A stretch of 64,000 nt of DNA from Escherichia phage vB_EcoM_CRJP21. The translations under genes were made by a program, and so were the position numbers. Within the stretch, counting starts at the first letter, position 1; each line of letters starts with the position of its first letter. The notes under the pieces were generated by a model. The model saw nothing but the letters and a program-made list of their open reading frames with translations. It was not told the DNA's origin and searched no databases. Where the stretch lies: the sequence record OQ708376.1; one strand, given 5' to 3'. Below, piece by piece: positions 7,572 through 28,430 of this stretch.

Positions 7572-8234
7572 ATGTTAGTTAATCTTAATTTCATCACTTC
7601 ACCTGACTGGGCATTACGTGGAGTTTCTTTAAACTTCAAGGAAACTATGTTTGACTACATTGGTGAGTGTACATTGGTAAATGCAACTTTTGATCCAAAT
7701 CATCCGTTTTGGGCTGAAATTCATGATCCAAATGTAAACAACAATACATCTGTTATGACTATTGTCCAGACTAAACATGCAGGTATCCTTGCAGGTTATC
7801 GACCTGCACATGCAATTGAACACTTCACTGATTACGATGTCGTGGATGAATACCCAATGATCCATGAAGATGGAAGTCTATACACATCTGAAGACTTCCG
7901 TGCTATCTTTAATAGTACTGATGATATTCTACCAAGTGGACGTCCACGTCCTGAGTCTTATCTTATGCATCCATCTTATGGTGTAGCAGATACGCTTGAA
8001 CAGATTATGAATAAGTACAAGAACCTAATTGAAGGTCCAGAAGAAATTGTCCTGTGCTATCACCCAGTACTGAAGTCTGAACAACCAAAGGATGGTGGAT
8101 GGCGTTGGCATAAGAATGGTGAGTATATCGGTACTAAACGAAGTAAAGAACGTTTTGAGTACTTGTATGATGAGCCAGATGTTGATGTGGTTTTGTGTTA
8201 TAATTTTATTAAGGTGAAAAAGAAATGTATCTAG
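7572..8234 (+). CDS. hypothetical protein (220 aa)
   Basis: ORF track 7554-8234; ATG 7572 follows GAGGA. Confidence 0.55.
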   Translation: MLVNLNFITSPDWALRGVSLNFKETMFDYIGECTLVNATFDPNHPFWAEIHDPNVNNNTSVMTIVQTKHAGILAGYRPAHAIEHFTDYDVVDEYPMIHEDGSLYTSEDFRAIFNSTDDILPSGRPRPESYLMHPSYGVADTLEQIMNKYKNLIEGPEEIVLCYHPVLKSEQPKDGGWRWHKNGEYIGTKRSKERFEYLYDEPDVDVVLCYNFIKVKKKCI

Positions 8235-8467
8235 TACTAAGTTTTGTTGTTGCACTATTGTTTATGTTCTATCCTACACTAGTGGCATTAGCCACTAGAC
8301 GAACGATGGTAGATCTCACTACTGTATTCTTGCTAAACGTGGCATTAGTACTGGTGTCTATTATCATTCCAGTGAGCTTTACAGTTATTGATATTATTTC
8401 GGTATTACTCTTCGTGTTAAGTTATCTTATGCTTATTGAAGAAACAAATGTTGACAAACGTTCGTAG
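8225..8467 (+). CDS. small membrane protein (80 aa)
   Basis: two hydrophobic helices; start overlaps upstream gene. Confidence 0.45.
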   Translation: MYLVLSFVVALLFMFYPTLVALATRRTMVDLTTVFLLNVALVLVSIIIPVSFTVIDIISVLLFVLSYLMLIEETNVDKRS

Positions 8468-8479
8468 TACTGTATAATG
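8451..8479 (+). promoter_or_regulatory. promoter TTGACA-N17-TGTATAAT
   Basis: consensus hexamers, AGTACTG before -10. Confidence 0.6.
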
Positions 8480-8524
8480 GTTCCTGTAGTCTGAAACTTA
8501 ACACTTAAACTTGAGGTAAAAAAT

Positions 8525-8851
8525 ATGCTATCAGTACTAATTTCAATTCCGTCTTTAATTCTGATTTGGCTTCTGGTTTACGAATGCTTTATTACTGATG
8601 ATAATGATAAAAAAGAGTTCTCTGAGTTGTTTATGCTTGATTCACCGATTGTGCGTATTTTCTATACAGTAGTTGTGGTTTCAGTAATTGTATGGGTTTT
8701 GAGTTTTATCTTCCCACTCGGTGCAGTAGTTAAAACTTTGGATTTAGTTGAGAACTTTGTTGCAATTATGTGGCTAATCAAAGCACTATTTGCAGGAAAT
8801 GTTAAAATTTGGATTGATATTATCAAATTCAAGTTCACGAATAAGATGTAA
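8525..8851 (+). CDS. membrane protein (108 aa)
   Basis: GAGG RBS; multiple hydrophobic segments. Confidence 0.5.
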   Translation: MLSVLISIPSLILIWLLVYECFITDDNDKKEFSELFMLDSPIVRIFYTVVVVSVIVWVLSFIFPLGAVVKTLDLVENFVAIMWLIKALFAGNVKIWIDIIKFKFTNKM

Positions 8852-8929
8852 CAGTGAAAATATCTCTATAGTATTAAATACTTCTGTACATATATATAGT
8901 ACAGAAGTATTTCTCGTTAGAGGTTTGTT

Positions 8930-9300: not shown

Positions 9301-9678
9301 ATGGTAAACACTATTTTACTTTTGTTGTTGAATATTCCAATTATTCTGTCTTTTTTAATTTCTATTTTTATGGCAGGATATTGTTTAGTTGCAGTAATTC
9401 ATTTCATTTTAACAAACAAATATGTCCTAATTTCTAAGCTTGATTCTATTTTTGCTTGCGATTCGATTGCTTATAACTTGTGGTTAATTTGTTCTTGCAT
9501 TATGGGAGTAACTTTCCTTCTGTATGTATTTGATGTCCTTGACCAAAAGTTCGTATACATCAGTACTGGATTGGCTCTTTATCCTGCTACGTGGTACTTG
9601 ATTTACGTTGGTGATATATGGTATAGTACTTATAAAGAATATCAGTACAAGAAATCACTTAACGTTGGAGGAAAATAA
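9301..9678 (+). CDS. membrane protein (125 aa)
   Basis: multiple hydrophobic helices. Confidence 0.5.
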   Translation: MVNTILLLLLNIPIILSFLISIFMAGYCLVAVIHFILTNKYVLISKLDSIFACDSIAYNLWLICSCIMGVTFLLYVFDVLDQKFVYISTGLALYPATWYLIYVGDIWYSTYKEYQYKKSLNVGGK

Positions 9679-11698: not shown

Positions 11699-11920
11699 AT
11701 GAAATATATAGTACTTGTACTGATATTATTCAGTACTGTTGTAAGTGCTAAACAAAAAGAATATGTTAAATGTATAAATTATGAAGAGAAATATGTTGAA
11801 ACATATAAAAAAAGTATAATTAAAAACGTTTCGATTACTAACAGAGCAACAATCATTGTACTTAAAAATGGGTTAATTATGCTATATAAACCACACGTTA
11901 AATGTGAAATTATTAATTGA
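11699..11920 (+). CDS. secreted protein (signal peptide)
   Basis: N-terminus MKYIVLVLILFSTVVSA. Confidence 0.5.
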   Translation: MKYIVLVLILFSTVVSAKQKEYVKCINYEEKYVETYKKSIIKNVSITNRATIIVLKNGLIMLYKPHVKCEIIN

Positions 11921-11927
11921 GGAAATT

Positions 11928-12500
11928 ATGAATCGTAAAGGTCGTTTTAAAGTATCAAAAAAGAACAAAAGTTCTAGGTTTAAACCTATTGTTTTAACAG
12001 TTAAATCTAACAAAGATTTAACTGCACTTAGTAAAAAGATAATTTCATCTAAGATTGAAGTATCATACGTAAATTCATTAAAATATATGAATGTCAAACC
12101 ACTGGACCAACTCATTTCACTTATATTTGAACGTAATGATTTTGAGATATCAGTAGATGATTATAGAGCCTATAATGCTGGTTTCATTAATGTTACTTGT
12201 AATAAAAAACTAACTGAGTTGGAAAATTTGTCATGTATAATAAATCTAGATAAAGGTGTTGTGAAGTACCATTTTGTACATTTCACTAATATCAATAATG
12301 GAATGGGTGTACAATCCAGACCTATAGTGCCTACGTGTGATGTTACTAAATTAGCAAAGCTCAATGATGAAGAATATTTTCAAGAAAGCATTGTAACTGA
12401 GCATTTAGATGATATAATAGCTACTTACAAAGAATGCATATGGGTGTTGAATGCTATAAAACCTAAATTGTGTTTAATGAATATTGTTCGTGATTTATGA
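11928..12500 (+). CDS. hypothetical protein (190 aa)
   Basis: ORF track 11904-12500; ATG 11928 after GAGGAAAT. Confidence 0.5.
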   Translation: MNRKGRFKVSKKNKSSRFKPIVLTVKSNKDLTALSKKIISSKIEVSYVNSLKYMNVKPLDQLISLIFERNDFEISVDDYRAYNAGFINVTCNKKLTELENLSCIINLDKGVVKYHFVHFTNINNGMGVQSRPIVPTCDVTKLAKLNDEEYFQESIVTEHLDDIIATYKECIWVLNAIKPKLCLMNIVRDL

Positions 12501-16300: not shown

Positions 16301-16307
16301 TAATAAA

Positions 16308-16340
16308 AGGGTTGACTTCGGTCAGCCTTTTTTGTTATGA
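16308..16340 (+). terminator. bifunctional terminator/promoter element
   Basis: GGGTTGAC-TTCG-GTCAGCC + T6. Confidence 0.7.
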
Positions 16341-16369
16341 TGTTGATATTAACTACAGAGGATAAAGTA

Positions 16370-17011
16370 ATGACTAAGCAAGAAATATTCAAAACTTTAA
16401 TTGACATTTTGCGTCCATCAAAAACTCGTTGTGCGATGGAGTTTGATATTCCTTATGCTGAACGCGTAATCTTTCCACAAGTTAAAGCTGCTGGACTTAC
16501 TTTGCTTGGAATGGGGATGTACTCTGTAGTAGTTGAACATAAAAACTATCCTGGACGAGCATTTAAAGTAACCACTTCACGCTGGGATGGTTTTCGTGCT
16601 TATGCAAAGTACTGCATTGAAAACGCAGGAACCAAGTTTCTTCCAGTGATCTACAGTGCCAACGAACAAGGAAACTTTGGATGGTATGAGATGGACAAGT
16701 ACTATCCTATAATTAAACAAAAAAATAATTATGATGACTTTGTTAGTACTAAAATTGGAGATTTGTATTCGTATGCACATGCTGGTCAGTACGCAACTTC
16801 AGTGAATGATATGCGTGGAAATTCTGAAGAGATTGCTATTGCAACGGTCGCTGCTAACATCATGAAAGAGTTTCACGGGCGTTTTGTACCAGACATTCAT
16901 TCAAGTAATGTGATGATGGATAAAGATGGGAATGTATTCATTACTGATCCTCTTTCGTGTGATGTGCGTAGAGAAATACCAATTACTGAAGAAGATCCAG
17001 TTTTTTATTGA
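16370..17011 (+). CDS. hypothetical protein with possible kinase/phosphotransferase-like motif (DIHSSNVMMDKDGNVFITD)
   Basis: ORF track 16337-17011; ATG 16370 after GAGGA; motif-level resemblance only. Confidence 0.5.
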   Translation: MTKQEIFKTLIDILRPSKTRCAMEFDIPYAERVIFPQVKAAGLTLLGMGMYSVVVEHKNYPGRAFKVTTSRWDGFRAYAKYCIENAGTKFLPVIYSANEQGNFGWYEMDKYYPIIKQKNNYDDFVSTKIGDLYSYAHAGQYATSVNDMRGNSEEIAIATVAANIMKEFHGRFVPDIHSSNVMMDKDGNVFITDPLSCDVRREIPITEEDPVFY

Positions 17012-17072
17012 CAGAACTGATGTTCTGATGTATTCTTAATAAACCATAAAAATTGCGGTAAAGGATAAAATC

Positions 17073-17356: not shown

Positions 17357-17695
17357 ATGGAACAATATTTTGAATTAATAAACAAAGTATCATTTTATGT
17401 AGTATCTTTGGTTTGGGTGTATTATATGTTTTGCTATATTATTGCATTCTTCCGATACACTACTTTATATGAACGTATCTACTATGATGCCCCAATTTCA
17501 TTCTTGATGTTTTGTGCCTGTACGTGGGGAATATTAGAAGTACTGATATGTGGGTATAGTACTGATGAATTAAATCTGGTATCGGTGTTGACTGGGTTTT
17601 CATTTGTTGTTATGATAGCTGCCGTTCCAGTATGGTTGTTCTTTGGACTAGTTCATCGCATTGATATATGGCGTTCTAATATCCCTGAAAAGTAA
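17357..17695 (+). CDS. small membrane protein, paralog family member (array A, 1 of 3)
   Basis: hydrophobic helices; C-terminal R-x-N-[ILM]-P-[EN]-[KRE] tail shared with 10 other ORFs. Confidence 0.55.
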   Translation: MEQYFELINKVSFYVVSLVWVYYMFCYIIAFFRYTTLYERIYYDAPISFLMFCACTWGILEVLICGYSTDELNLVSVLTGFSFVVMIAAVPVWLFFGLVHRIDIWRSNIPEK

Positions 17696-17704
17696 GGATT
17701 GGTA

Positions 17705-18046
17705 ATGATTTATTACACTAACATGTTTGCCTATGCTGTTGCTTGCATTTACATTGTTTACTTCTTATTCGGTGGAGTACTGTGCTTCTTTAAGTACAAA
17801 ACGTTGTTCAACCGAATGTACCCAAATCATCCAATTGTAGTTGTACTTTTGATTCTTTCAGTTTCTCAAATAATCGTTGAAACTACAATGGGTATCAGTA
17901 GTGTACATTATAGTTTTGGTACTATAGTAATTATTACTATGCTTATTGCATACATTTTAGTACTTGGATATGGTATCTTTGGTAATATTGGTATGAAAAT
18001 GTATCATCGAATTAAAACATTACGTGATAATCTACCGGAGCGTTGA
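17705..18046 (+). CDS. small membrane protein, paralog family member (array A, 2 of 3)
   Basis: ATG 17705 after AAGGA; C-terminal tail RDNLPER. Confidence 0.55.
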   Translation: MIYYTNMFAYAVACIYIVYFLFGGVLCFFKYKTLFNRMYPNHPIVVVLLILSVSQIIVETTMGISSVHYSFGTIVIITMLIAYILVLGYGIFGNIGMKMYHRIKTLRDNLPER

Positions 18047-18047
18047 T

Positions 18048-18392
18048 ATGTATAATTTGAACCTAATCTCATATATTATAACAACACTGTTTACATTCTA
18101 TGCCTTTGTTGGTATAATCCTACTGTACTTTAAATTTTATAAAGTGTTTAACCGTTTCTATCCTTCAATGGAGAATGAGTTTTTCTTTGTGTTGTACGTA
18201 GGTTACACATTAATGGCTACATGTTTCACTGTAGCCGATGGTGTCATCGGCATTAAAACTGATTCCCCAAATGGTAGTACGCTGGTTGCATTTATTCTTA
18301 CTGGATTCCTTGCAACTTATATTGCCTTCATTACAACATGGTCAGTGGTTGAATTTCTCTTGCGACTACGAAAGAATATGCCGAATCGATAG
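18048..18392 (+). CDS. small membrane protein, paralog family member (array A, 3 of 3)
   Basis: ATG 18048 after GGAG; C-terminal tail RKNMPNR. Confidence 0.55.
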   Translation: MYNLNLISYIITTLFTFYAFVGIILLYFKFYKVFNRFYPSMENEFFFVLYVGYTLMATCFTVADGVIGIKTDSPNGSTLVAFILTGFLATYIAFITTWSVVEFLLRLRKNMPNR

Positions 18393-18401
18393 GAGACATA
18401 T

Positions 18402-18656
18402 ATGTTTGCGTTGCGTAATAAAAACACTAAAGAATTATTATGTATTGATACCGTATGGGATTGTGCGGGGTCAACTACAGTTCTTGAAGAAGGAACTGGA
18501 TATTGCGTGTTTGTTGTACATGATAGGAATGAACTCGAATTATTACTTGCTGAGTTCAATGCTGGTGGTAATCCTAACAGTACTGAATACCCTGAGATTA
18601 TCAATCCAGCACCACCAGGCTCTTATGAAATTCTACAACTGTGGGAGTTGAAGTAA
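18402..18656 (+). CDS. hypothetical protein (84 aa)
   Basis: GGAGA RBS. Confidence 0.5.
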   Translation: MFALRNKNTKELLCIDTVWDCAGSTTVLEEGTGYCVFVVHDRNELELLLAEFNAGGNPNSTEYPEIINPAPPGSYEILQLWELK

Positions 18657-19036
18657 TGCGTCAAATGCACAAAGTAACCGAGCTAAACAAGCGTCTGGTT
18701 AAACAATCAATGTTCGAGGATAAAGAGTCTTATTATAACTTTAAACGTGCAGTAGAGGCTGCTATCCACATTCAGAAGCTTAAAGAACGTGGTTGTATTA
18801 TTCTGGAAAATGGTTCGGAAGTTGTAACGGATGACTTTAGTGTAGCGTTTGATGTTTCACCTGACGGGACGCTATCAATGCCCCGCTTAGGAACTGGAAA
18901 CATGACTGTTTGGGTTGGCTTCACTATGGGGAATGTACCTGGTACTGTGTACGTAGATGATGCAGAATTGAAAGACAGTTTCAAAAACTTATCTTATCTT
19001 GAACCACAATACGCACATGAAATGAATTTATTTTGA
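18656..19036 (+). CDS. hypothetical protein (126 aa)
   Basis: ORF track 18641-19036; ATG 18656 after GGAG. Confidence 0.5.
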   Translation: MRQMHKVTELNKRLVKQSMFEDKESYYNFKRAVEAAIHIQKLKERGCIILENGSEVVTDDFSVAFDVSPDGTLSMPRLGTGNMTVWVGFTMGNVPGTVYVDDAELKDSFKNLSYLEPQYAHEMNLF

Positions 19037-19037
19037 G

Positions 19038-19094
19038 TTGACAAACACATTCAGTACTGTATAATGCTTATCAAGGGGATGAACTTCTCATCCC
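19038..19094 (+). promoter_or_regulatory. promoter TTGACA-N17-TGTATAAT followed by 5' stem-loop GGGATGA-N-TCATCCC
   Basis: consensus hexamers; hairpin just downstream of predicted start site. Confidence 0.6.
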
Positions 19095-19112
19095 TACAAT
19101 CGAGGAACTACC

Positions 19113-19667
19113 ATGATTACTTTTAAGAAAACTGCTAACCACATCCATGAAATCTACATTAACGGTCACAAAGCTGGCCTTCTTCGTTTACTCGCCCATC
19201 ACCCTGATGCTACCGTATCTGATAATGAACCTAAAGATTGGCGTGTCTTTTTCTTTGGAAAGTACAGTGATTTTCAAGTATCAAACCTGAAGAACATTCG
19301 TTCAGTATGCACGTTAAATGAAATTAAAGAAAAGTTAGCACAAGCATTGAAAACTAATCCAGATGGTGTTCTTCCACCTGATAACTTTGTAGAGAAAGGT
19401 TATGCCTTAGCTCATTTCAAAGATGGTACTATTCAATCTATCAGTACTGAATATGAATATCATTGGACTGAGTACTTCACTTATGGTTCGAGTAATACAT
19501 TGATGGATTCACGTAGTAAATTGGAAGAAGTACTGACTCGTATGAATGAACGCGAGCGTCAGTTATATGACAAACCAGAAATGTGGAGTTCAACTTACAT
19601 TGACCGTATTGACTATGTTATTATGACTCCAATCTTTGACACTGCTTACTATGATTCTTTGAAATAA
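19113..19667 (+). CDS. hypothetical protein (184 aa)
   Basis: GAGGAACT RBS. Confidence 0.55.
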   Translation: MITFKKTANHIHEIYINGHKAGLLRLLAHHPDATVSDNEPKDWRVFFFGKYSDFQVSNLKNIRSVCTLNEIKEKLAQALKTNPDGVLPPDNFVEKGYALAHFKDGTIQSISTEYEYHWTEYFTYGSSNTLMDSRSKLEEVLTRMNERERQLYDKPEMWSSTYIDRIDYVIMTPIFDTAYYDSLK

Positions 19668-19679
19668 GGATAACTTATA

Positions 19680-19856
19680 TGAAACTACGTACTCGTAATC
19701 GACTGATGGATGCACTGTACCATGAACAGCTTTCACTGAATGAAGTGAAGCGTCAGTTAATGTACACATATCAGTTTCCCGCTCGCATTGCAAAACAACG
19801 TGCTAAAGAATTGCTGAAAGAAGCAATCGAGTACTGGGAATCTGATTCGTACTAAT
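19680..19856 (+). CDS. hypothetical basic protein (58 aa)
   Basis: AAGGA N8 ATG; below ORF-track cutoff. Confidence 0.4.
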
Positions 19857-19894
19857 ATTACGTGATATGTCACGTTAATTAAGTGAGGCGATAA

Positions 19895-20146
19895 ATGAAA
19901 ATATTATTAGTTCTAATACTACTAATAGTTTTACCATTTACTTTAGTATCCCCTGGACTTGCATGGAATGTATTTGTGTACTTAGTATGTACTATTGTAG
20001 TAAATGGTATCTTGTTCTTAGTTCTATTCATAAATGGAATAGGACACGGTGGAGGATGGACCAGTACTGCTGATATTGTACATAAAACCACTATGTCTTT
20101 ATTTGTAATGTGGAATTTATTCTGGACTTGGTTTGTGTTCTTCTAA
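19895..20146 (+). CDS. small membrane protein (83 aa)
   Basis: GAGG RBS; hydrophobic helices. Confidence 0.5.
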   Translation: MKILLVLILLIVLPFTLVSPGLAWNVFVYLVCTIVVNGILFLVLFINGIGHGGGWTSTADIVHKTTMSLFVMWNLFWTWFVFF

Positions 20147-20154
20147 TTAAAAAT

Positions 20155-20526
20155 ATGAATATAGATTTGAAAGGTGCAACACGAACTGTTATCCTCGTTG
20201 GGGAATATGCTATCAAGATTCCAACCTTTAAAAGTTGGAAGCTATTCTTAACAGGGATGATAGCTAACCTCAATGAACGTTCGTGGATGCAGTACTCCAA
20301 TCGTAGTGATAGTAGTATCTGTCCTACGTTGTGGTCATCATGTACTGGACTAGTAACTGTACAGAAACGTTGTAAGCCAGTTCAACATAGGGGTTTATTT
20401 TGGGTGGAGTTGTGTGCTTTAGCATTGAATTCAGAGTTAAGTACTGACTTCTTCTATTCAGATGCGAAGCCAGAAAACTTTGGGTATCTGGGTGGTAAGT
20501 TAGTTAAACTTGATTATGGAGATTAA
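20155..20526 (+). CDS. small protein with protein-kinase-like catalytic motifs (AIK, D-x-KPEN, DYG)
   Basis: ORF track 20110-20526; motifs EYAIKIP, SDAKPENFGY, VKLDYGD; motif-level only. Confidence 0.4.
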   Translation: MNIDLKGATRTVILVGEYAIKIPTFKSWKLFLTGMIANLNERSWMQYSNRSDSSICPTLWSSCTGLVTVQKRCKPVQHRGLFWVELCALALNSELSTDFFYSDAKPENFGYLGGKLVKLDYGD

Positions 20527-20527
20527 T

Positions 20528-20797
20528 ATGTACGCACTGTATAATAAAGAAAAGAAACGATTTGCTAAGGTTGAAATTTCGATTGATACATTTGATATGT
20601 TGGAGTACTGTATTGTAACTGACCTATATGCTAACTTGTATTACGTTCTTGATGACGTATCAGTACTGCAACGATTGCTTGAGAATTCCAAAAGTCAATG
20701 CCAGGGCATCCATGATGGTTCATCTTATGAAACACCTGAGTGTTCCTACGGCTATCTGGACGGGTATGAGATTGTGAAGTTGGGGATCATTGAATAA
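20528..20797 (+). CDS. hypothetical protein (89 aa)
   Basis: ATG 20528 after GGAG. Confidence 0.45.
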   Translation: MYALYNKEKKRFAKVEISIDTFDMLEYCIVTDLYANLYYVLDDVSVLQRLLENSKSQCQGIHDGSSYETPECSYGYLDGYEIVKLGIIE

Positions 20798-20802
20798 AGA
20801 AA

Positions 20803-20836
20803 AGGGTTGACTTCGGTCAGCCCTTTTTGCTATAAT
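20803..20836 (+). terminator. bifunctional terminator/promoter element
   Basis: GGGTTGAC-TTCG-GTCAGCCC + T5; TTGACT-N18-TATAAT. Confidence 0.7.
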
Positions 20837-20864
20837 TATTTCATCAAGACGAGAGGATGAATAC

Positions 20865-21380
20865 ATGACACGCATTAACTTAGTACACGTTAAAGAACTT
20901 GCTGACCAACATCTGATGGCTGAATATCGTGAACTCCCACGTGTATTTGGTGCTGTACAAAAACACGTTCAAGCACGTAAGCGTGTACGTGATTTCAAAA
21001 TTAACAGTACTTATCTGTTAGGTTCAGGTCATGTGACATTCTTTTACGACAAGTTGCTGTACTTACAGAAGCGTCATATCGATATTGTTAACGAATGTTT
21101 GCGTCGTGGTATGAAGATTCAAAACACTGAAGTAAACGACATTAGCGGATTCCCTGCTGAGTTTTGTAATGACTACGTACCATCGGAGTCAGAGATTAAA
21201 ATGTCTCGTGACCGTTTGATTGAGAAGCTCCAGATGAAGCCTACGTGGTATAAGTTTACTGATGTTGAATGTCCACAGTACGTTAAAGATATGCAGAACG
21301 TAAGTAGTAAGAACGAATCTAGTACTGATATGTTCGACGAAATTGAAGAACAAATCAAAGATGAAATGAATAATTATTAA
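20865..21380 (+). CDS. denV: pyrimidine dimer DNA glycosylase (T4 endonuclease V homolog) with C-terminal extension
   Basis: N-terminus [34 protein letters not shown]...[10 protein letters not shown]...PTWYK closely matches T4 DenV as I recall it; AGAGGAT RBS. Confidence 0.85.
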
Positions 21381-21385
21381 AGGAA

Positions 21386-21405
21386 AGGGTTGACTTCGGT
21401 TACAC
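21386..21405 (+). terminator. degenerate copy of terminator/promoter element
   Basis: GGGTTGACTTCGGTTAC, stem disrupted. Confidence 0.3.
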
Positions 21406-21418
21406 AAAGGAACATAAC

Positions 21419-21613
21419 ATGTTATTAGTATATTCAAAGCGTTTCTGGATTTCTTTTATTGTACTATCGCTAATCGGCTTCGGTTTGAGTATACTCTTTT
21501 CGTGGGATGAATTGGGCACATGGTATTATGAAGTCCCGTGGTACATGAAGATAGCTCCTTGTTATGCGGCATTGTTCGTGTCATTCCTTATTGTTGTCTT
21601 CAGCGAGGATTAG
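21419..21613 (+). CDS. small membrane protein (64 aa)
   Basis: AAGGAAC RBS; two hydrophobic helices. Confidence 0.5.
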   Translation: MLLVYSKRFWISFIVLSLIGFGLSILFSWDELGTWYYEVPWYMKIAPCYAALFVSFLIVVFSED

Positions 21614-21719
21614 TTGATGTAGTATGTGCTACACCAAAGTATTTGGATATTTTAGATATAAACATTGACACCTGTTCTATCTTTCTGTATTATGTACATC
21701 ACCAAATGAGGAATACAAC

Positions 21720-22079
21720 ATGGCATCTTTAAGTGAAATCGCAGAATACAACCCACTAACAATCTCAACAATTCAACGTACAAAAACTTTTTATTTCCGT
21801 CCTTCTGATGGATGGAAACGTGGAATGAATGGTGACTATCGAGTACTGGAAGATTCACTAATCGAGCGTATCAACTCTGAACTACAGAAGTATGAAGGTG
21901 TTAAAGTTGTGCGTTCAACTTCTCGTTATTTTGAGTACTACATTGAGTCTTCAACTGTAAATGAAAACTCATCATTCTCGGTGGACAACACTGATATTCT
22001 TCGTAATGCAGTTGGTCTGTTATGCAACATTGCAGAAGAAATGGGCTTAACTATTACTACTATGAGTGAATTAGAATAA
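21720..22079 (+). CDS. hypothetical protein (119 aa)
   Basis: GAGGAAT RBS. Confidence 0.55.
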   Translation: MASLSEIAEYNPLTISTIQRTKTFYFRPSDGWKRGMNGDYRVLEDSLIERINSELQKYEGVKVVRSTSRYFEYYIESSTVNENSSFSVDNTDILRNAVGLLCNIAEEMGLTITTMSELE

Positions 22080-22083
22080 CATA

Positions 22084-22118
22084 AAGGGTTGACTTCGGTC
22101 AGCCCTTTTTGCTATAAT
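22084..22118 (+). terminator. bifunctional terminator/promoter element
   Basis: GGGTTGAC-TTCG-GTCAGCCC + T5; TATAAT downstream. Confidence 0.7.
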
Positions 22119-22144
22119 ACTTTCATCAACAGAAGAGGTAACAC

Positions 22145-22375
22145 ATGAAACTATCTTTTATACGATTGGCTGAATTCTTTGGTACTGATGTAATTACTCT
22201 ACAACAAATAGCAGATAATACATCATTAACTACGCAAGAAGTACTTGACTTAGATGTAATTCAGTGCAATAATACTTCAATCGATTACAAAGAAGGTCTT
22301 GTCGAAAAAGATAAGATTCAGGCTAAGATTAATGGTGCTGGACGGGTTCAGTACTGGAAAGCTATATTAAGTTGA
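22145..22375 (+). CDS. hypothetical protein (76 aa)
   Basis: AGAGG RBS. Confidence 0.5.
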   Translation: MKLSFIRLAEFFGTDVITLQQIADNTSLTTQEVLDLDVIQCNNTSIDYKEGLVEKDKIQAKINGAGRVQYWKAILS

Positions 22376-22390
22376 ATTGGAGATTTGTAT

Positions 22391-24034
22391 ATGATTGGAA
22401 GTTTTTGTTTTATTGACAAAAAAAAACGTTCAAAACCTTATATTATTGCTGAAAAGGTAAGAAATATATTTTCTAATATAAAAGAAATAAATTGTGACTT
22501 TATTGGTTTTGATATTAACTCAATACTTGAATGGGAAGGGGAAAAAACATATATTTTATATGAAATAAATGGTATAACAAAAAAGATTAGATATGATATT
22601 CTAAGACAACATTCTAATAATGGTTCTTTTCCGAATAAAAAACATTTTAATTCTGAAGAATTAAAAAAATGTAGTAAAGAAAAAAAAATATTTGATTATG
22701 ATAAGTCAATGAGATTGTCATCTTATTATTCAACACCAAATATAATAACGGTTGGTGATAAAGATATATCATATTTTACTGCTCTTCAGTTAGAAGCTAT
22801 ATCTCCATATATGCATTTTAACTCTATCACACCCACTGAATATTCGAAAAAAATATTGAATAAGATAAAAGAGTTTAAAAATGTTGAAGTTATTTTTTAT
22901 GGATTTTATGTATCATACTATTCAGAATGGAATAACAAAAAAACAAAAATAGTAATATCTTTTAATGAATATGTTACCTATCATATGACAATTGATGATT
23001 TTTTATATAGTTTAGATAGTAATATAACAGATATTCCTCGTTTTAATTATAATAATGAAAATTTTATTTATCGTATGATGTTTTTTGGATATGCTAATAA
23101 TCATACTTTTGATTTATCAAATTTAAACATTAAAAATTCCAAATCAATAATTAGAAAAAAATGTAAAGTATGTAAAAGTACTGATGTAGTGAGTATTGCA
23201 CAACATATTAGGAATCCTAGTTGCTCTGTATGTTTTTATAATACTGAAAAATTTAATTATAATGAATATGAAGCATGTGAAGAAGTTGTTAATGAGTATA
23301 AGGGATTTCATTATATGAATCATGATAATATAAAATTCATTCCAATTGGATGTTCTTACACACCATTTGAATGGTATGAAATAATAAAATATAAGGGTGG
23401 TGATTCTTTTATTGGTTTTTATATTAACAGTTCTTCAGAGTTTGACGGTAATAAGACGAAAATTTTATTAGATATTAATGGGGTAATATTAACTCCAACA
23501 ATTCTCAATTTTCTTGAGAGATACGAAAATATGTATAAAGACCTAATAAATCCAACAATATCTTTGGAAATTATGTCTAATAATAAATACAAACCCTCGG
23601 TTGCACGTCACAAAAGAATCTTTAGTCAACCTATTTTAACATTAGGAGGGATTATTTCATCAAATGATTTATCATCATATGAAATGATAGTCGCATTGTT
23701 CCTAATCAAAAATAATATTGATTTTCATTTTCAATTCAGAACTGAAGAATCAATAGAATTTATGGGAAATAGAAGATATGATTTTTATGTACCAGATTAT
23801 AATCTAATCATTGAAGTTGATGGTGCACAGCATACAAACTATTGCCCAATATTTCATAGAAGTGAAGAGTGCTTACAAAAACAAATGGAAATTGATGAAA
23901 TAAAACTTGAATTTGCAAAAGAATCAGGATATAATTTTGCTCGCATTAACTATGATGAATCTATTGTTGATGAACTTATTAATGTGATTAAAAAAATATC
24001 ATCTGAAAATAATCAGATTATTAGAACTTATTAA
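22391..24034 (+). CDS. Asn/Lys-rich protein with C-terminal PD-(D/E)xK-like nuclease motif
   Basis: ORF track 22385-24034; C-terminal RRYDFYVPDYNLIIEVDGAQH resembles Vsr/DUF559-type fold; motif-level only. Confidence 0.45.
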   Translation: MIGSFCFIDKKKRSKPYIIAEKVRNIFSNIKEINCDFIGFDINSILEWEGEKTYILYEINGITKKIRYDILRQHSNNGSFPNKKHFNSEELKKCSKEKKIFDYDKSMRLSSYYSTPNIITVGDKDISYFTALQLEAISPYMHFNSITPTEYSKKILNKIKEFKNVEVIFYGFYVSYYSEWNNKKTKIVISFNEYVTYHMTIDDFLYSLDSNITDIPRFNYNNENFIYRMMFFGYANNHTFDLSNLNIKNSKSIIRKKCKVCKSTDVVSIAQHIRNPSCSVCFYNTEKFNYNEYEACEEVVNEYKGFHYMNHDNIKFIPIGCSYTPFEWYEIIKYKGGDSFIGFYINSSSEFDGNKTKILLDINGVILTPTILNFLERYENMYKDLINPTISLEIMSNNKYKPSVARHKRIFSQPILTLGGIISSNDLSSYEMIVALFLIKNNIDFHFQFRTEESIEFMGNRRYDFYVPDYNLIIEVDGAQHTNYCPIFHRSEECLQKQMEIDEIKLEFAKESGYNFARINYDESIVDELINVIKKISSENNQIIRTY

Positions 24035-24042
24035 TAATAAAA

Positions 24043-24076
24043 AGGGTTGACTTCGGTCGGCCCTTTTTGCTATAAT
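24043..24076 (+). terminator. bifunctional terminator/promoter element
   Basis: GGGTTGAC-TTCG-GTCGGCCC + T5; TATAAT downstream. Confidence 0.7.
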
Positions 24077-24104
24077 TATTTCATCAACTACAGAGGGTAA
24101 CGAA

Positions 24105-24878
24105 ATGAACCGTACAGAGAAAGCAATCCAAATCGAAAAGAACTTCAACTCCATGATGGCAGCACTGGAATGTCTTCTTGATACACAAACTAACTCTATC
24201 AACTCTCTGATCGTTTCTGGTAAGGGTGGTGTTGGTAAAACTTATAACGTTGACCAACGGTTGCAGAAAGCTGATGATAACTTTGAAATCGACTACAAGA
24301 AAATCAGTGGTAAAGTAACTACTTTGGGTCTGTATGAAGCACTGTATCGTTCACGTCATGCAGCATCTGTACTGTTACTTGATGACGTTGATATCTTCTC
24401 GGACGAGACTAATATTGATTTGCTTAAAGCTGTGTTGGATACGTCAGAGAAGCGTGTAGTTTCTTACGCGACTTCTGCTAAGTACTTGGAACAGCAGGGT
24501 ATCCCTAAGCAGTTTGAATTCCGTGGTAAAGTAATCTTTCTGACTAACAAAAACCTGTCACAGATTGCTAAAGGTAAAAGCAGCTTAGCACCACACATCG
24601 ATGCACTGATCACTCGTAGTATCTTTGTTGACCTGCAACTGTTCACCAACGAAGAAGTGATGATTCACATTGAGAACATCATGAACAAAACTAACATCCT
24701 TGAAAACAATGGTGTTAACAAAAATGGTTGTAAAGCAATCCTGAATTGGATGCTGAGCAATGAAGATCGTCTACGTAGTCCTTCACTGCGTATGCCAGTA
24801 CTGATCGCTGGTCTGTATAATAAATTCCCATACGATTGGGAGTCAATGGCAGAGAATATGTTCCTTGATAAAATTTAA
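24105..24878 (+). CDS. P-loop NTPase (Walker A SGKGGVGKT, Walker B-like LLLDDVD)
   Basis: GGGTAACG RBS; Walker motifs read directly. Confidence 0.55.
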   Translation: MNRTEKAIQIEKNFNSMMAALECLLDTQTNSINSLIVSGKGGVGKTYNVDQRLQKADDNFEIDYKKISGKVTTLGLYEALYRSRHAASVLLLDDVDIFSDETNIDLLKAVLDTSEKRVVSYATSAKYLEQQGIPKQFEFRGKVIFLTNKNLSQIAKGKSSLAPHIDALITRSIFVDLQLFTNEEVMIHIENIMNKTNILENNGVNKNGCKAILNWMLSNEDRLRSPSLRMPVLIAGLYNKFPYDWESMAENMFLDKI

Positions 24879-24887
24879 TTACATGCA

Positions 24888-24916
24888 TTGACAGTACTAA
24901 CAATGTGTAGTACTAT
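24888..24916 (+). promoter_or_regulatory. promoter TTGACA-N17-TACTAT
   Basis: consensus -35, near-consensus -10, ahead of membrane-protein array. Confidence 0.5.
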
Positions 24917-24945
24917 AACAAAAGTTTAATCACTGGAGACACCCA

Positions 24946-25287
24946 ATGCGTGAGTTTTTTGAATCTAATATAATGCTTGGTATTACACTGATATACATGT
25001 TTGTATTCTTGTTTTATCATTCAATTGTAATTAGTCTTTGGTATTTTAAAAGGAAAGTTGTTTTTAAATTGTATTCGTATGATAATGTATTCTTAGTTGT
25101 ATATAGCATTATACAAGGTGGGTTTATTTTATTTGGTGTGATGACATATGTGATTTACATGTTACAAATTGATAATACACCACACATTACACAATATGTT
25201 GTGTTTTCAGGACTAATCGTCTGGTTATTGGTGTGTACTATGTATTTTATTATTAAAGCTCGTGATAACTTTAAATGGGGATTCTAA
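24946..25287 (+). CDS. small membrane protein, paralog family (array B, 1 of 8)
   Basis: GGAGAC RBS; clear paralog of 25275-25625 (shared LIY-F-F-YH and WYFK-K-VFKLY segments). Confidence 0.6.
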   Translation: MREFFESNIMLGITLIYMFVFLFYHSIVISLWYFKRKVVFKLYSYDNVFLVVYSIIQGGFILFGVMTYVIYMLQIDNTPHITQYVVFSGLIVWLLVCTMYFIIKARDNFKWGF

Positions 25288-25625
25288 TGTTAGAATTTTT
25301 TAAATCAGATACAATGATTAGTATTACTTTGATTTATCTGTTTGGTTTTTTCTTTTATCATGCACTAGTTGTAGTACTATGGTATTTTAAAAAGAAAATT
25401 GTTTTTAAACTGTATCCAGTGAGGAATTCATCACTAGTTCTTTACACACTTGTTCAAGGTTTGTTTGCAATTGTTGGTCTTATGGCACACTTAATTTATT
25501 GTGCTAATCCTCACTTGAACTCAATCTCACAATATATTGTATTCTTTGGGTTGTTCATTTGGTTAGTTGCATACTTAATCCATCTCATTATTCATGGTAG
25601 AGATAAAATTCGCGGAGACTTCTAA
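25275..25625 (+). CDS. small membrane protein, paralog family (array B, 2 of 8)
   Basis: paralog of upstream gene; overlapping start. Confidence 0.6.
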   Translation: MGILMLEFFKSDTMISITLIYLFGFFFYHALVVVLWYFKKKIVFKLYPVRNSSLVLYTLVQGLFAIVGLMAHLIYCANPHLNSISQYIVFFGLFIWLVAYLIHLIIHGRDKIRGDF

Positions 25626-25972
25626 TGTTTGAAGCTTATCTTGAGTTTTTAAGGAGTAGTCCAGTTGCACATTCACTTGCAGGGATTATTCTAACAACTT
25701 ATGTATCATTTTGGTTAGTTATGTTTCTAGGATGGTATTTTAAACGACAATTCTATAAACGTAATGGTGAAGATTTTATGAATTCTGCCATTAATCAATC
25801 GTTGTTTGCATCAACATTGATTGCATGTATTGTAGCAACACTCACAGGAAAGGTACTACCAGCTTTTTCCGCAGTTTACGGCACACTTGGGATGATATGT
25901 TTAACTTTTATATTGACCATTAAAATTTGTTGTGTTATGATTGAACTTCGAAATAAGATACCGGAGGAATGA
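25625..25972 (+). CDS. small membrane protein, paralog family (array B, 3 of 8)
   Basis: ATGA overlap; WYFKRQFYKRN motif; tail RNKIPEE. Confidence 0.55.
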   Translation: MFEAYLEFLRSSPVAHSLAGIILTTYVSFWLVMFLGWYFKRQFYKRNGEDFMNSAINQSLFASTLIACIVATLTGKVLPAFSAVYGTLGMICLTFILTIKICCVMIELRNKIPEE

Positions 25973-26307
25973 TGGAGTACTTTATTGATTTACTGCCGTG
26001 GTATATGAAAGTTAGTACTTTGTACTATATTATTAGTGCTGGGTTCTACTTTCTGATGTGGTTCTTCAAACGACCAATTTCAGTATTCATCTCTGATAAC
26101 ATGCTGCAATTAAAATTACACGCATGGTTTGGTATGGCGATGATTATGCCAATTATTCACTACTCAATGATTAGTAGAGGTTTCCGTTCTAATGGTGAAC
26201 CAATTGTATTAGTATTCTATTGGGGTTCAACTATTGCATATGTAAGTTTGTTGTTGTTCCCAGTCGTTCATAAGTTACGTGCTAAAGTTCCTGATGCGAG
26301 GTACTAA
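25969..26307 (+). CDS. small membrane protein, paralog family (array B, 4 of 8)
   Basis: ATGA overlap; hydrophobic helices. Confidence 0.55.
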   Translation: MMEYFIDLLPWYMKVSTLYYIISAGFYFLMWFFKRPISVFISDNMLQLKLHAWFGMAMIMPIIHYSMISRGFRSNGEPIVLVFYWGSTIAYVSLLLFPVVHKLRAKVPDARY

Positions 26308-26621
26308 TGGATATAGTAACATTGATTTACACGTTGTATTCATTCTATTTCATTATGTGTTGGGTTGGATTTTTATTTGTACTCAAGATGTTTGATTATG
26401 TTGAAAAACAGATAAAAGAATTTTGTATTCCTTTTATCGGTTCAACCATTATTAGTGTTTCTTGTGTGTATTTTTTGGTTTTTGATCCACCAGATAACAC
26501 TGCAATGATTGACTTGATGTTACTACCAACAACTGTTACTTTTTTATGTAGTCTGATGCCGCCGATTAGCCGTGGACTAACAGAATTTAGACGCAATCAA
26601 AAGCGTAAACGAGGGATGTAA
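26307..26621 (+). CDS. small membrane protein, paralog family (array B, 5 of 8)
   Basis: overlapping start; basic C-terminal tail. Confidence 0.5.
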   Translation: MDIVTLIYTLYSFYFIMCWVGFLFVLKMFDYVEKQIKEFCIPFIGSTIISVSCVYFLVFDPPDNTAMIDLMLLPTTVTFLCSLMPPISRGLTEFRRNQKRKRGM

Positions 26622-26989
26622 TGGAAATTGCTCTTATTATCTTAACTGCTATGCTGTTTATTAGTACTGTGGTTATAATTGGTAAATTCTTTTGTGTATC
26701 ATTTTTAGAAACGGTATACGATGAAATTGCTGATGATTATGAATTACAAGCCGGATTTTTCATTACGTATTGGCTTAGTTTATTTTGTCTAGTCATTGCT
26801 TGGATTTTACATATCTTTAAATGGGGTATGGTAGACGGTGATCCTATTATGGCAATTATTGTTCTAGTGTTTGGTATCCTTGGTGGTGCAGTGCATAATC
26901 TAATGGTTATCTGGCAAACTGTTCAATATGTTTTGGTTCCCTATTTCGAAAAGATGCACAGTACAATTAAAAAACGTAAACGAGGTTAG
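26621..26989 (+). CDS. small membrane protein, paralog family (array B, 6 of 8)
   Basis: overlapping start; basic tail KKRKRG. Confidence 0.5.
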   Translation: MEIALIILTAMLFISTVVIIGKFFCVSFLETVYDEIADDYELQAGFFITYWLSLFCLVIAWILHIFKWGMVDGDPIMAIIVLVFGILGGAVHNLMVIWQTVQYVLVPYFEKMHSTIKKRKRG

Positions 26990-26990
26990 T

Positions 26991-27353
26991 ATGAACGGGA
27001 TAGAATTATCTTTCGTTGGTCAATTACTAGTAATGGCGTATACATTTATCTTCTCACTGAATGCATTCGTGTGCATTGGGAAGTACTTCCATAAGCGACC
27101 ATTATCAAATATATATGATGTAATCCAAAAGAGATATAGTCCAGCATATACTGTGTTGGGTACAGTATTCAATTTTGGTTTTATTGTATTAATAATTGGA
27201 CTGTTCACATCCTCTTTGAATACAATAACCTTTGGTCTTATGATATGTTCATTGGTATTAGCCGTAATTATATGTTGTTTAGTACTGCACCTTGTGGTAC
27301 TATTGTATATAAAGATCTCTGAAATCCACCAACGTTTGGGTATGAGGAAATAA
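26991..27353 (+). CDS. small membrane protein, paralog family (array B, 7 of 8)
   Basis: ORF track 26928-27353; ATG 26991 directly after upstream stop, CGAGG RBS. Confidence 0.5.
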   Translation: MNGIELSFVGQLLVMAYTFIFSLNAFVCIGKYFHKRPLSNIYDVIQKRYSPAYTVLGTVFNFGFIVLIIGLFTSSLNTITFGLMICSLVLAVIICCLVLHLVVLLYIKISEIHQRLGMRK

Positions 27354-27354
27354 T

Positions 27355-27726
27355 ATGAGTTACCGTGAGATATTTTCCATTATTTCAATTATTATGTTCA
27401 GTACTGGAACACTGGTATGGTTATTATACTTCTTCTGTATTAATCCAGTGTATAATATGTTATGTAATATTAAATCAAGTGCCGGATATATCACTTTTAT
27501 GGTCTTTATGGGATATTATTGTCTAAGCATTTTAGGTGTTGTTTTGGTTGTTATATTTGATGTGGGACCAAATAGTGATGGTATGGAAATACATGAATTA
27601 ATAACCATGTTTGGATGTATGATACCAACAGCACTACTGTTTGTAGCTACTGGTAGTGGATTGATAAAATTATATAATTATTTAAAATCCATTCATAATT
27701 CCATTCATAATAAGCGTATGTCATAA
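27355..27726 (+). CDS. small membrane protein, paralog family (array B, 8 of 8)
   Basis: ORF directly after upstream stop. Confidence 0.5.
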   Translation: MSYREIFSIISIIMFSTGTLVWLLYFFCINPVYNMLCNIKSSAGYITFMVFMGYYCLSILGVVLVVIFDVGPNSDGMEIHELITMFGCMIPTALLFVATGSGLIKLYNYLKSIHNSIHNKRMS

Positions 27727-27767
27727 TAAAAATCCAGTACTATTAAGTACTGGATGTATAAGGAGTT

Positions 27768-28430
27768 ATGATGAAATCAAAATTAGGTTTGTTTTATAAA
27801 AATTATTTTGTTAAACAACGTAAATTTATAAAAAAATATTTCTCTGGAGAGAAGTCTAGTCCTATAATCTTTAAAAGACCAAGTTATAATACTTACTTAG
27901 CTGGTGCTAAACAGTCTAAGAAATTTATTACTCTTTTACATAAAAACAACATTAAAGCTTCTTATGTTGAAACGAGAAGAAACTCATCAATAACTCCGGG
28001 TGATTTTATTGAGTACGGATGTTTCAATATTAAGTACAATGATAATACATACTTTATGGATATTGATTGTAATACATCCAATCTTTTTAACATTGTAGTA
28101 AATCCATTAAAACAATATAATGTTTATGGTGATTCTATTATCAAATTAATCAAAAACAAAGATGGCTTTGATTTTGAAATAAATGTTTTAGATGATAATT
28201 TTGACGAAGTACCCGTAAACCCTGAAATCTGTGATATTTTAAACAGTTTAAAAGGTAGTACCTACAATATATCATCTGATTTAATGTTTCAGTACTCATT
28301 AATCCATAAAGATATTGAAAAGTATATTGAATGCTCCAGAATTTTGAATTTTCTCTATGATGAATTTAAAAAGAGTTCTAAAATAACTGCATACACTTTG
28401 TACAATATTCCTAAAATGGTGAATCTTTGA
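27768..28430 (+). CDS. hypothetical protein (220 aa)
   Basis: AAGGAG RBS; converges with minus-strand array. Confidence 0.55.
   Translation: MMKSKLGLFYKNYFVKQRKFIKKYFSGEKSSPIIFKRPSYNTYLAGAKQSKKFITLLHKNNIKASYVETRRNSSITPGDFIEYGCFNIKYNDNTYFMDIDCNTSNLFNIVVNPLKQYNVYGDSIIKLIKNKDGFDFEINVLDDNFDEVPVNPEICDILNSLKGSTYNISSDLMFQYSLIHKDIEKYIECSRILNFLYDEFKKSSKITAYTLYNIPKMVNL

Follow-up and report, generated by a model that had tools for sequence, protein, structure and literature searches.

Two tandem arrays of genes encoding small membrane proteins, one of three members (m1 to m3) and one of eight (m4 to m11), are found in a 64,000-nucleotide (nt) stretch of the genome of Escherichia phage vB_EcoM_CRJP21 (sequence record OQ708376.1), hereafter referred to as the window. 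Between 17 and 28 kb, the window shares 98% identity with Escherichia phages vB_EcoM_G17 and Sharanji, and this segment is related to 121Q, PBECO4 and other Asteriusvirus phages, whose genomes measure about 350-385 kb. The source phage is an Asteriusvirus jumbo coliphage. A sequence-only reading of the window had proposed that the arrays host eleven paralogues. All 11 open reading frames (ORFs) are present on the + strand where that reading had placed them, and all are annotated as coding sequences in the closest public genomes, as 'hypothetical protein' in G17, ph0011, WPEC3 and UE-S1. Translation starts have been refined by considering Shine-Dalgarno positions, the G17 annotation and the N-terminal alignment of paralogues (Table 1). 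A Shine-Dalgarno match is located 3-7 nt 5' of the start in 9 of the 11 genes.

The encoded proteins range from 104 to 123 amino acids (aa), and each contains three hydrophobic segments. Sizes of ~110-125 aa and 2-3 predicted helices had been proposed earlier; the description as small membrane proteins holds. Because lysine and arginine residues are concentrated in loop 1 and in the C-terminal tail (79, versus 10 in N-terminus and loop 2 together), the predicted topology is that of a three-pass inner-membrane protein, with a periplasmic N-terminus and a cytoplasmic location of both loop 1 and the basic C-tail. In agreement, the record of Klebsiella phage Muenster carries the TMHMM notes '3 TMDs N-out C-in'. 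Members presumably insert in the membrane. An AlphaFold (AF2) model of m6, of moderate confidence (pLDDT 69), features a short N-terminal helix followed by three long helices.

The best-conserved position of the family is a phenylalanine at the cytoplasmic end of helix 1, present in 96% of the 50 sequences aligned. The aromatic and basic residues next to it, and the R/H-x-[NK]-[ILM] motif in the tail, are the other best-conserved positions. Two signatures earlier assigned to the whole set are more restricted. The F-[KR] segment following helix 1 is found in m1-m7 and is replaced by F-H-K in m10, but m8, m9 and m11 differ. The tail R-x-N-[ILM]-P is exact in m1-m3 and variant in m6 (RNKIPEE) and m7 (RAKVPDA), KRKRG marks the tails of m8 and m9, and m4, m5, m10 and m11 have other basic tails. 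Orthologues from different clades are 37-40% identical in helix 1, loop 1 and tail, and 22-25% in helix 2, periplasmic loop and helix 3. In some tails, the final 2-3 codons (encoding PEE, KRG, MRK, ARY and GDF) carry the GGAG/GAGG ribosome-binding site of the next gene. Because of this overlap with Shine-Dalgarno sequences, part of the C-terminal motif is dual-coded; the invariant phenylalanine and the tail R/H sit outside the overlap.

Homology among the eleven proteins

Pairwise BLASTP comparisons of the 11 proteins gave significant scores for m1-m2 (2e-9), m2-m3 (1e-5), m1-m3 (0.005), m1-m11 (0.001) and m4-m5 (E = 1e-34, 47% identity), and none for the remaining pairs. The duplication of m4 and m5, already noticed in the sequence-only reading, is clear. 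With only five significant pairs, pairwise BLAST was set aside as sole proof of homology. In a scan of PHROGs the genes fall into seven separate families, all of 'unknown function' (19285, 19454, 19046, 27396, 33258, 26405 and 27618), linked by faint cross-matches; phrog_16874, a 'membrane protein' family, was also matched. Ten of the 11 proteins have a match in one of them, with E values of 1e-51 to 1e-70; the matches of m3 (3e-4) and m10 (0.046) are weaker. PHROGs keeps these families separate and unrelated, whereas they are here joined in one superfamily, to which topology, synteny and distribution are added.

The joining is based on profile comparisons. Alignments of orthologues compared by hhalign gave 13 real pairs above 18.9, the maximum score obtained with reversed sequences, and these pairs connect 10 of the 11 genes, m8 being the exception. 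Most of the alignments are collinear and near full length. Iterative hmmsearch was run on every ORF of 60-200 aa of the window and of seven related loci, plus reversed decoys. Ten of the eleven seeds reached the same set of about 100 sequences, which includes all 11 members and no decoys, and recruited ORFs are confined to the two array positions in every genome searched. Scores of the 11 members are 63-83 bits, and the next-best ORF of the window reaches 7.5 bits; other small membrane ORFs (starting at window positions 19895, 21419, 8225 and 8525) were never recruited by the family profile.

Each member was also scored against a profile from which its own subfamily, with the member itself and all its orthologues, had been removed. 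Scores of m1 to m11 were, in the order, 22.2, 22.3, 34.1, 17.3, 21.3, 28.8, 15.2, 19.1, 34.7, 31.7 and 35.8 bits, while the maxima of reversed or shuffled decoys of the same composition were 5.7-10.3 bits. Arrays not used for training behaved similarly. The seven genes of the metagenomic lineage L013 scored 28-46 bits, the nine genes of lineage L015 19-46 bits, those of phage CBB 29, 19 and 18 bits, and those of lineage L011 52, 16 and 11-13.5 bits, the third value varying with the start used; decoys remained at 9.8 bits or less. Two neighbouring JNE01 ORFs (815-1168 and 11815-12168) were rejected as members, since their scores are about 0 bits once the profile is built without them.

Because the profile tests exceed composition-matched decoys, the notion that all 11 genes make up one homologous, highly diverged family is supported, most weakly for m7 and m4. 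Eight subfamilies are distinguished, {m1, m2, m3}, {m4, m5}, and m6, m7, m8, m9, m10 and m11 each on its own. Topology prediction and alignment of all 11, suggested as a check together with the original proposal, gave three helices, an N-out/C-in orientation and one family by profiles, and a lack of statistical support among members, which would have spoken against the proposal, is not what emerged, held-out scores spanning 15.2-35.8 bits versus decoys at 10.3 or less.

It is highly improbable that the genes do not form one family, their apparent relatedness being a by-product of transmembrane composition and embedded ribosome-binding sites, and some ORFs perhaps not being genes at all. Most pairwise BLAST comparisons are indeed non-significant, in PHROGs the set is divided among seven or more families, Shine-Dalgarno sequences overlap the final codons of the common C-terminal motif, and m7 (15.2 bits) and m4 (17.3 bits) are modestly above controls. 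Yet decoys of the same composition never exceeded 10.3 bits, unrelated small membrane ORFs of the same loci were never recruited, and most alignments are collinear over nearly the full length; the invariant phenylalanine and the tail R/H are not part of the overlap, and all 11 genes are under purifying selection and conserved in 35-44 genomes.

No significant match was obtained in Pfam, NCBIfam and PADLOC, where only sub-threshold noise (e.g. DUF350, DUF443, SUR7) was found; the PADLOC defence-system protein models gave no match for m1, m6, m7 and m9. Searching the fold of the m6 model against PDB and BFVD retrieved only its own orthologue. A relation to T4 nrdC.7 or nrdC.9, located near nrdC.10, was considered and discarded (best score 8.2 bits, no match).

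Distribution, copy number and linkage to an NrdC.10-like ATPase

Members were detected by tblastn in 35-44 phage records, all from jumbo phages of Escherichia, Salmonella or Klebsiella. Since these records were sequenced independently, the arrays are not an assembly duplication, a possibility raised along with the original proposal. An exhaustive HMMER search of 1.84 billion representative proteins returned 50 clusters at E <= 1e-3, 89-127 aa in length and matched over almost their full length, except for one 56-aa fragment. Every sampled cluster with a long contig lies on a contig of 100-390 kb, the size of a jumbo phage, and no second type of locus was found. A word-indexed search of 5.8 billion proteins with the family alignments identified close orthologues only. 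The family is, as far as these searches reach, restricted to RaK2-like jumbo phages. No paper describing it was found in the literature. According to the RaK2 paper, about 10% of the proteins of that phage are paralogues, and 43 'conserved putative membrane proteins' are listed in the CBB paper. The family is undescribed, but its kind is familiar, both as regards phage membrane proteins that are small and early and as regards the expansion of paralogues in jumbo phages.

All seven array-2 subfamilies are found in the same order, at ~30-50% identity, in the divergent Asteriusvirus clade A4/JNE01, and Klebsiella phage Muenster (genus Alcyoneusvirus) has a collinear series of m4/5, m7, m8, m9 and m11, with identities of 28-38%. 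Because subfamilies are collinear across both, the duplications predate the split of Asteriusvirus and Alcyoneusvirus into genera. The family is best explained as the outcome of ancient tandem duplication in the ancestor of the RaK2-like jumbo phages of Enterobacterales, and features now eight non-redundant subfamilies in two operons. Copy number, which it had been suggested to compare across related phages, varies from 3 to 9 in the large array: there are eight copies in the window, G17, ph0011, UE-S1, JNE01 and Muenster, seven in WPEC3, A4 and L013, nine in L015, and three in L011 and CBB. The m4/m5 pair is represented by one or two copies among close relatives, m4 being missing in WPEC3, m8 is duplicated in JNE01, and array 1 contains 1-3 copies. 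The ratio of nonsynonymous to synonymous substitution rates (dN/dS), calculated versus ph0011 and WPEC3, is 0.09-0.42 for the members and 0.02-0.05 for the adjacent ATPase gene. Members are under purifying selection, looser than that acting on the ATPase and most neighbours, and evolve faster than most neighbouring genes.

The ATPase encoded immediately upstream of the large array is a homologue of T4 NrdC.10. Walker A (GKGGVGKT) and Walker B (LLLDDVD) motifs are present, and G42, G44, K45, D93 and D94 are invariant. The protein is 41% identical, over 96% of its length, to T4-type NrdC.10 (genes annotated nrdC.10 in RB7 and PEi26), but is devoid of the ~65-75 N-terminal residues of the latter. 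All lineages examined (at least seven) have a homologue (50-71% identity) directly or a short way upstream of the array. The array follows directly or within ~2 kb, with no intergenic gap in A4, Muenster, L013 and L015, and no terminator was detected between the ATPase gene and m4 in the window. NrdC.10 is found in ~1,300 T4-like phage records. In the two T4-like phages examined, RB7 and PEi26, the array is missing, in contrast to the jumbo phages, and no family member is found nearby, which argues that NrdC.10 has a function independent of the array.

The AlphaFold model of the ATPase has an AAA+ fold (pLDDT 93). Assignment to an AAA+ clade failed both by sequence, matches to Orc1/Cdc6, Hda, DnaI and TnsC all being non-significant, and by fold, matches being spread over CbbQ, DnaA, RuvB, ORC, NSF and RFC at TM ~0.5. 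In CBB, the candidate CBB_542 was rejected as a homologue (E = 0.31), the real one being CBB_538. The ATPase of the window is 96-99% identical to those of JNE01, UE-S1 and ph0011 and 59% identical to that of G17, and the flanking arrays are 98-100% identical to G17; this region reads as a recombination mosaic. Linkage to the ATPase, sparse pairwise similarity, ancient collinear duplications and the dual-coded tail motif are all points that the sequence-only reading had missed.

Transcription units and flanking genes

Both arrays are preceded by sigma70-like promoters (Table 1). In the array-1 promoter the TTGACA box and the -10 box, at 17-nt spacing, are kept in G17, ph0011 and UE-S1. Six of the seven best sigma70 matches of the 15.5-29 kb interval fall in the 751 nt that are intergenic (6% of the region). 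Genes are packed end to end. Four junctions are TAATG overlaps, one is an ATGA overlap and one is a 9-nt gap; at the others gaps of 1-2 nt are found, three between members and one before m1. The tight coupling of the genes noted in the sequence-only reading is thus supported. Tight junctions and embedded ribosome-binding sites indicate translationally coupled operons.

Table 1. Genes and signals of the two arrays and the adjoining ATPase gene (window coordinates)
Feature	Coordinates	Strand	Remarks
Sigma70-like promoter, TTGACA-17-TATTCT	17008..17036	+	operon g17073-m1-m2-m3
g17073, 93 aa	17073..17354	+	non-member gene (phrog_37917, function unknown); heads array-1 operon; 2-nt gap to m1
m1, 112 aa	17357..17695	+	subfamily m1-3; phrog_19285
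m2, 113 aa	17705..18046	+	subfamily m1-3; refined start
m3, 114 aa	18048..18392	+	subfamily m1-3; refined start
AAA+ ATPase, 257 aa	24105..24878	+	T4 NrdC.10 homologue; phrog_1250, E = 6.5e-100
Sigma70-like promoter, TTGACA-17-TACTAT	24888..24916	+	eight-gene operon; kept in G17, ph0011 and WPEC3
m4, 113 aa	24946..25287	+	subfamily m4/5; phrog_19454
m5, 112 aa	25287..25625	+	subfamily m4/5; 47% identical to m4; refined start (not 25275)
m6, 115 aa	25625..25972	+	phrog_19046; hub linking subfamilies
m7, 111-112 aa	25969 (probably 25972)..26307	+	phrog_27396
m8, 104 aa	26307..26621	+	phrog_33258; most divergent member; 19.1 bits held out
m9, 122 aa	26621..26989	+	phrog_26405
m10, 120 aa	26991..27353	+	refined start (not the longest-ORF start 26928)
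m11, 123 aa	27355..27726	+	phrog_27618
Shine-Dalgarno sequences	25960-25972, 26295-26307, 26608-26621, 26975-26991, 27340-27355		inside last codons of the upstream genes
Hairpin CCAGTACT-ATTA-AGTACTGG	27732..27755	.	ends eight-gene operon; G17 has an annotated terminator here

Neighbouring genes include homologues of T7 and T4 early genes, namely those of a T7 gp0.7-type kinase, DenV and NrdC.10. The kinase (phrog_15752, E = 1e-98; window 16337-17011) is encoded directly upstream of array 1, and L011 and L015 likewise have a kinase gene with small membrane genes after it. The operons are probably transcribed early by the host RNA polymerase. Given the host sigma70-type promoters and the end-to-end packing of the genes, the copies are probably made together and early. 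No transcriptomic study of Asteriusvirus or RaK2 was found in the literature.

AGTACT-centred palindromes are found both in the spacer of the array promoter (AGTACTA...TAGTACT) and in the array terminator (CCAGTACT...AGTACTGG). An intergenic cassette, AAAGGGTTGACTTCGGTCAGCCCTTTTTGCTATAAT, is repeated at 16301-16369, 20798-20864, 22080-22144 and 24035-24104, with a partial copy at 21381-21418. It consists of a GC hairpin followed by a T-run, as in a terminator. The stem includes a sigma70 -35 box, and a perfect -10 box follows at a distance of 18 nt. Promoter-early stem-loop cassettes mediate module shuffling in T4-type phages, and the cassette repeated in the window resembles them.

A 549-aa ORF (window 22385-24034) located in a stretch with 26% GC matches HNH and homing-endonuclease PHROGs. 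It looks like a mobile insertion, because G17 has a different 1.1-kb gene at that position. Small hydrophobic ORFs that are not members of the family are located at 8225-8900, 9301-9678, 19895-20146 and 21419-21613 (80, 108, 125, 83 and 64 aa); those of 83 and 64 aa are conserved in related phages. The position after the large array is occupied in the window by an unrelated 220-aa gene (27768-28430), and by a DUF1190/lipoprotein-type gene in Muenster (L006, 11104-11691), CBB (L010, 31548-32171) and the metagenomic L013 (7728-8294). Right after the array, from 28411 onward on the minus strand, paralogues with RCC1/WD40_RLD and Kelch repeats ('DNA condensation protein') represent a second expanded gene family, found also in L005, L007, L011, L013 and L015. 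GC skew changes sign there and again near 44 kb.

Possible functions of the family

The members are tentatively viewed as a battery of co-produced early inner-membrane effectors, possibly serving host takeover, exclusion of other phages or the blocking of membrane-bound defence. Paralogues would share a cytoplasm-facing surface for anchoring or interaction, made of the helix-1 end ([WY]-F-[FK]-[KR]) and the tail ([RH]-x-[NK]-[ILM]), and would diverge in the half spanning helix 2, periplasmic loop and helix 3, each of them targeting a different inner-membrane function of the host. This effector role is favoured because copy number is plastic and members evolve faster than their neighbours, and because the membrane and periplasmic half is divergent and the region is of the early, host-takeover type. 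Superinfection exclusion and membrane remodelling, named among candidate functions in the sequence-only reading, are consistent with the predicted inner-membrane location and the sigma70-type promoters.

Several points weigh against an effector role. The literature searched contains no expression, localisation or phenotype data for any member, and neither sequence nor fold searches revealed a resemblance to any known protein of exclusion, takeover or anti-defence. Early timing is deduced only from promoter sequence and neighbouring genes, and the m6 model is of moderate confidence only. Residues conserved family-wide are predicted to face the cytoplasm, and not the periplasm, where components of incoming phages would be met. 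Moreover, strict maintenance of the same subfamilies in the same order across genera, purifying selection and coupled translation are at least as typical of the subunits of a complex as they are of effectors acting independently.

The main rival is favoured by the fixed order of the genes, their coupled translation and the motifs conserved on the cytoplasmic side. Here the paralogues would be the subunits of a single hetero-oligomeric assembly in the inner membrane, for example a channel, a pore or an anchoring platform, with which the NrdC.10-like ATPase may cooperate by docking on the conserved cytoplasmic motifs. Such an assembly, rather unlikely in our estimate, would account for the same subfamilies occurring in the same order across Asteriusvirus clades and Alcyoneusvirus, for translational coupling within one operon, for the cytoplasmic placement of the most conserved positions, and for the closeness of array and ATPase gene in at least seven lineages (gapless in four), with no terminator found between the ATPase gene and m4 in the window. 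Subunits of a fixed assembly are less easily reconciled with copy numbers of 3-9 and lineage-specific duplications and losses (m4 missing in WPEC3, only three genes in CBB and L011). In addition, array 1 is not beside the ATPase gene, NrdC.10 is found in ~1,300 T4-like records, of which the two examined have no member close by, the fold of the ATPase is that of AAA+ proteins in general and gives no sign of a membrane-related clade, and the conserved gene order may reflect shared ancestry of related phages. A bolder version, in which the F-K/R and R-x-N-I motifs of a hetero-oligomeric machine recruit the NrdC.10-like ATPase, to form a new ATP-driven complex of RaK2-like phages, is improbable. 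If true, the complex could serve e.g. to anchor replication or packaging at the membrane, in transport, or in resisting membrane-based defences, and would give a first clue to what the widespread orphan T4 gene nrdC.10 does.

A role as holins or antiholin-like proteins setting lysis timing is considered very improbable. Size, topology and basic C-tail fit the description of class I holins, and one UniRef entry (A0AAU7PHD9) names an m2 orthologue 'Holin', a label for which no evidence was found, all other sources reporting 'hypothetical'. These phages, in which the endolysin bears a membrane domain at its N-terminus, have no identified holin: neither a T holin nor an RI antiholin is reported in the RaK2 paper, an endolysin of the signal-anchor type is described for this phage group in the CBB paper, and no holin assignment for the group was found in the literature. 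However, no match to holin families was obtained in Pfam (E <= 1; <= 0.01 for m11) or PHROG (E <= 0.1; <= 0.001 for m11), no consistent dual-start motif is present, and eleven copies reside in sigma70-promoter operons among early-gene homologues. The endolysin corresponds to 121Q gp532 and the arrays include 121Q genes 224-232; these being far apart, the arrays are not in a lysis cassette. Toxin/antitoxin-like or abortive modules, in which small membrane toxins are paired to neutralising partners, had also been listed as candidates; only the smallness and hydrophobicity of the members speak for them, and they are highly improbable. Typical type I toxins are under ~60 aa and have one helix, unlike the members, which have 104-123 aa and three helices. 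No pattern of partner genes and no PADLOC match were found, the phage has a strictly lytic life cycle, and the purifying selection on the genes is of the ordinary kind.

RaK2-like jumbo phages (121Q, PBECO4, G17, RaK2) are in development for therapy, although over 80% of their genes are without a known function. The merging of at least seven 'unknown' PHROG families into one three-pass inner-membrane superfamily covers 11 of the ~600-770 genes annotated per such genome. Next to the gene of the orphan AAA+ ATPase NrdC.10 the family makes up a conserved module, and it is a testable target to learn how jumbo phages that do not form a nucleus manipulate the host membrane early. Should the link to the ATPase be functional, it would help to find out what a gene conserved in ~1,300 T4-like genomes does.

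Among known systems, class I holins of the lambda S105 type are similar to the family, being ~100 aa long, with three helices, N-out/C-in topology and a charged cytoplasmic C-tail. The family differs in its 11 copies, versus one, in its early-looking promoters, and in having no adjoining endolysin or spanin genes. The T4 Imm and Sp proteins, which act in superinfection exclusion, exemplify the kind of role tentatively proposed here: they are small, reside in the inner membrane, and are encoded by a virulent phage in early regions under sigma70 promoters. Imm has two helices and Sp one. No homology of the Imm/Sp type was detected in Pfam, PHROG and NCBIfam. Imm and Sp are encoded by single genes, whereas the family described here is a conserved array of paralogues, in which the conserved residues are predicted to face the cytoplasm.

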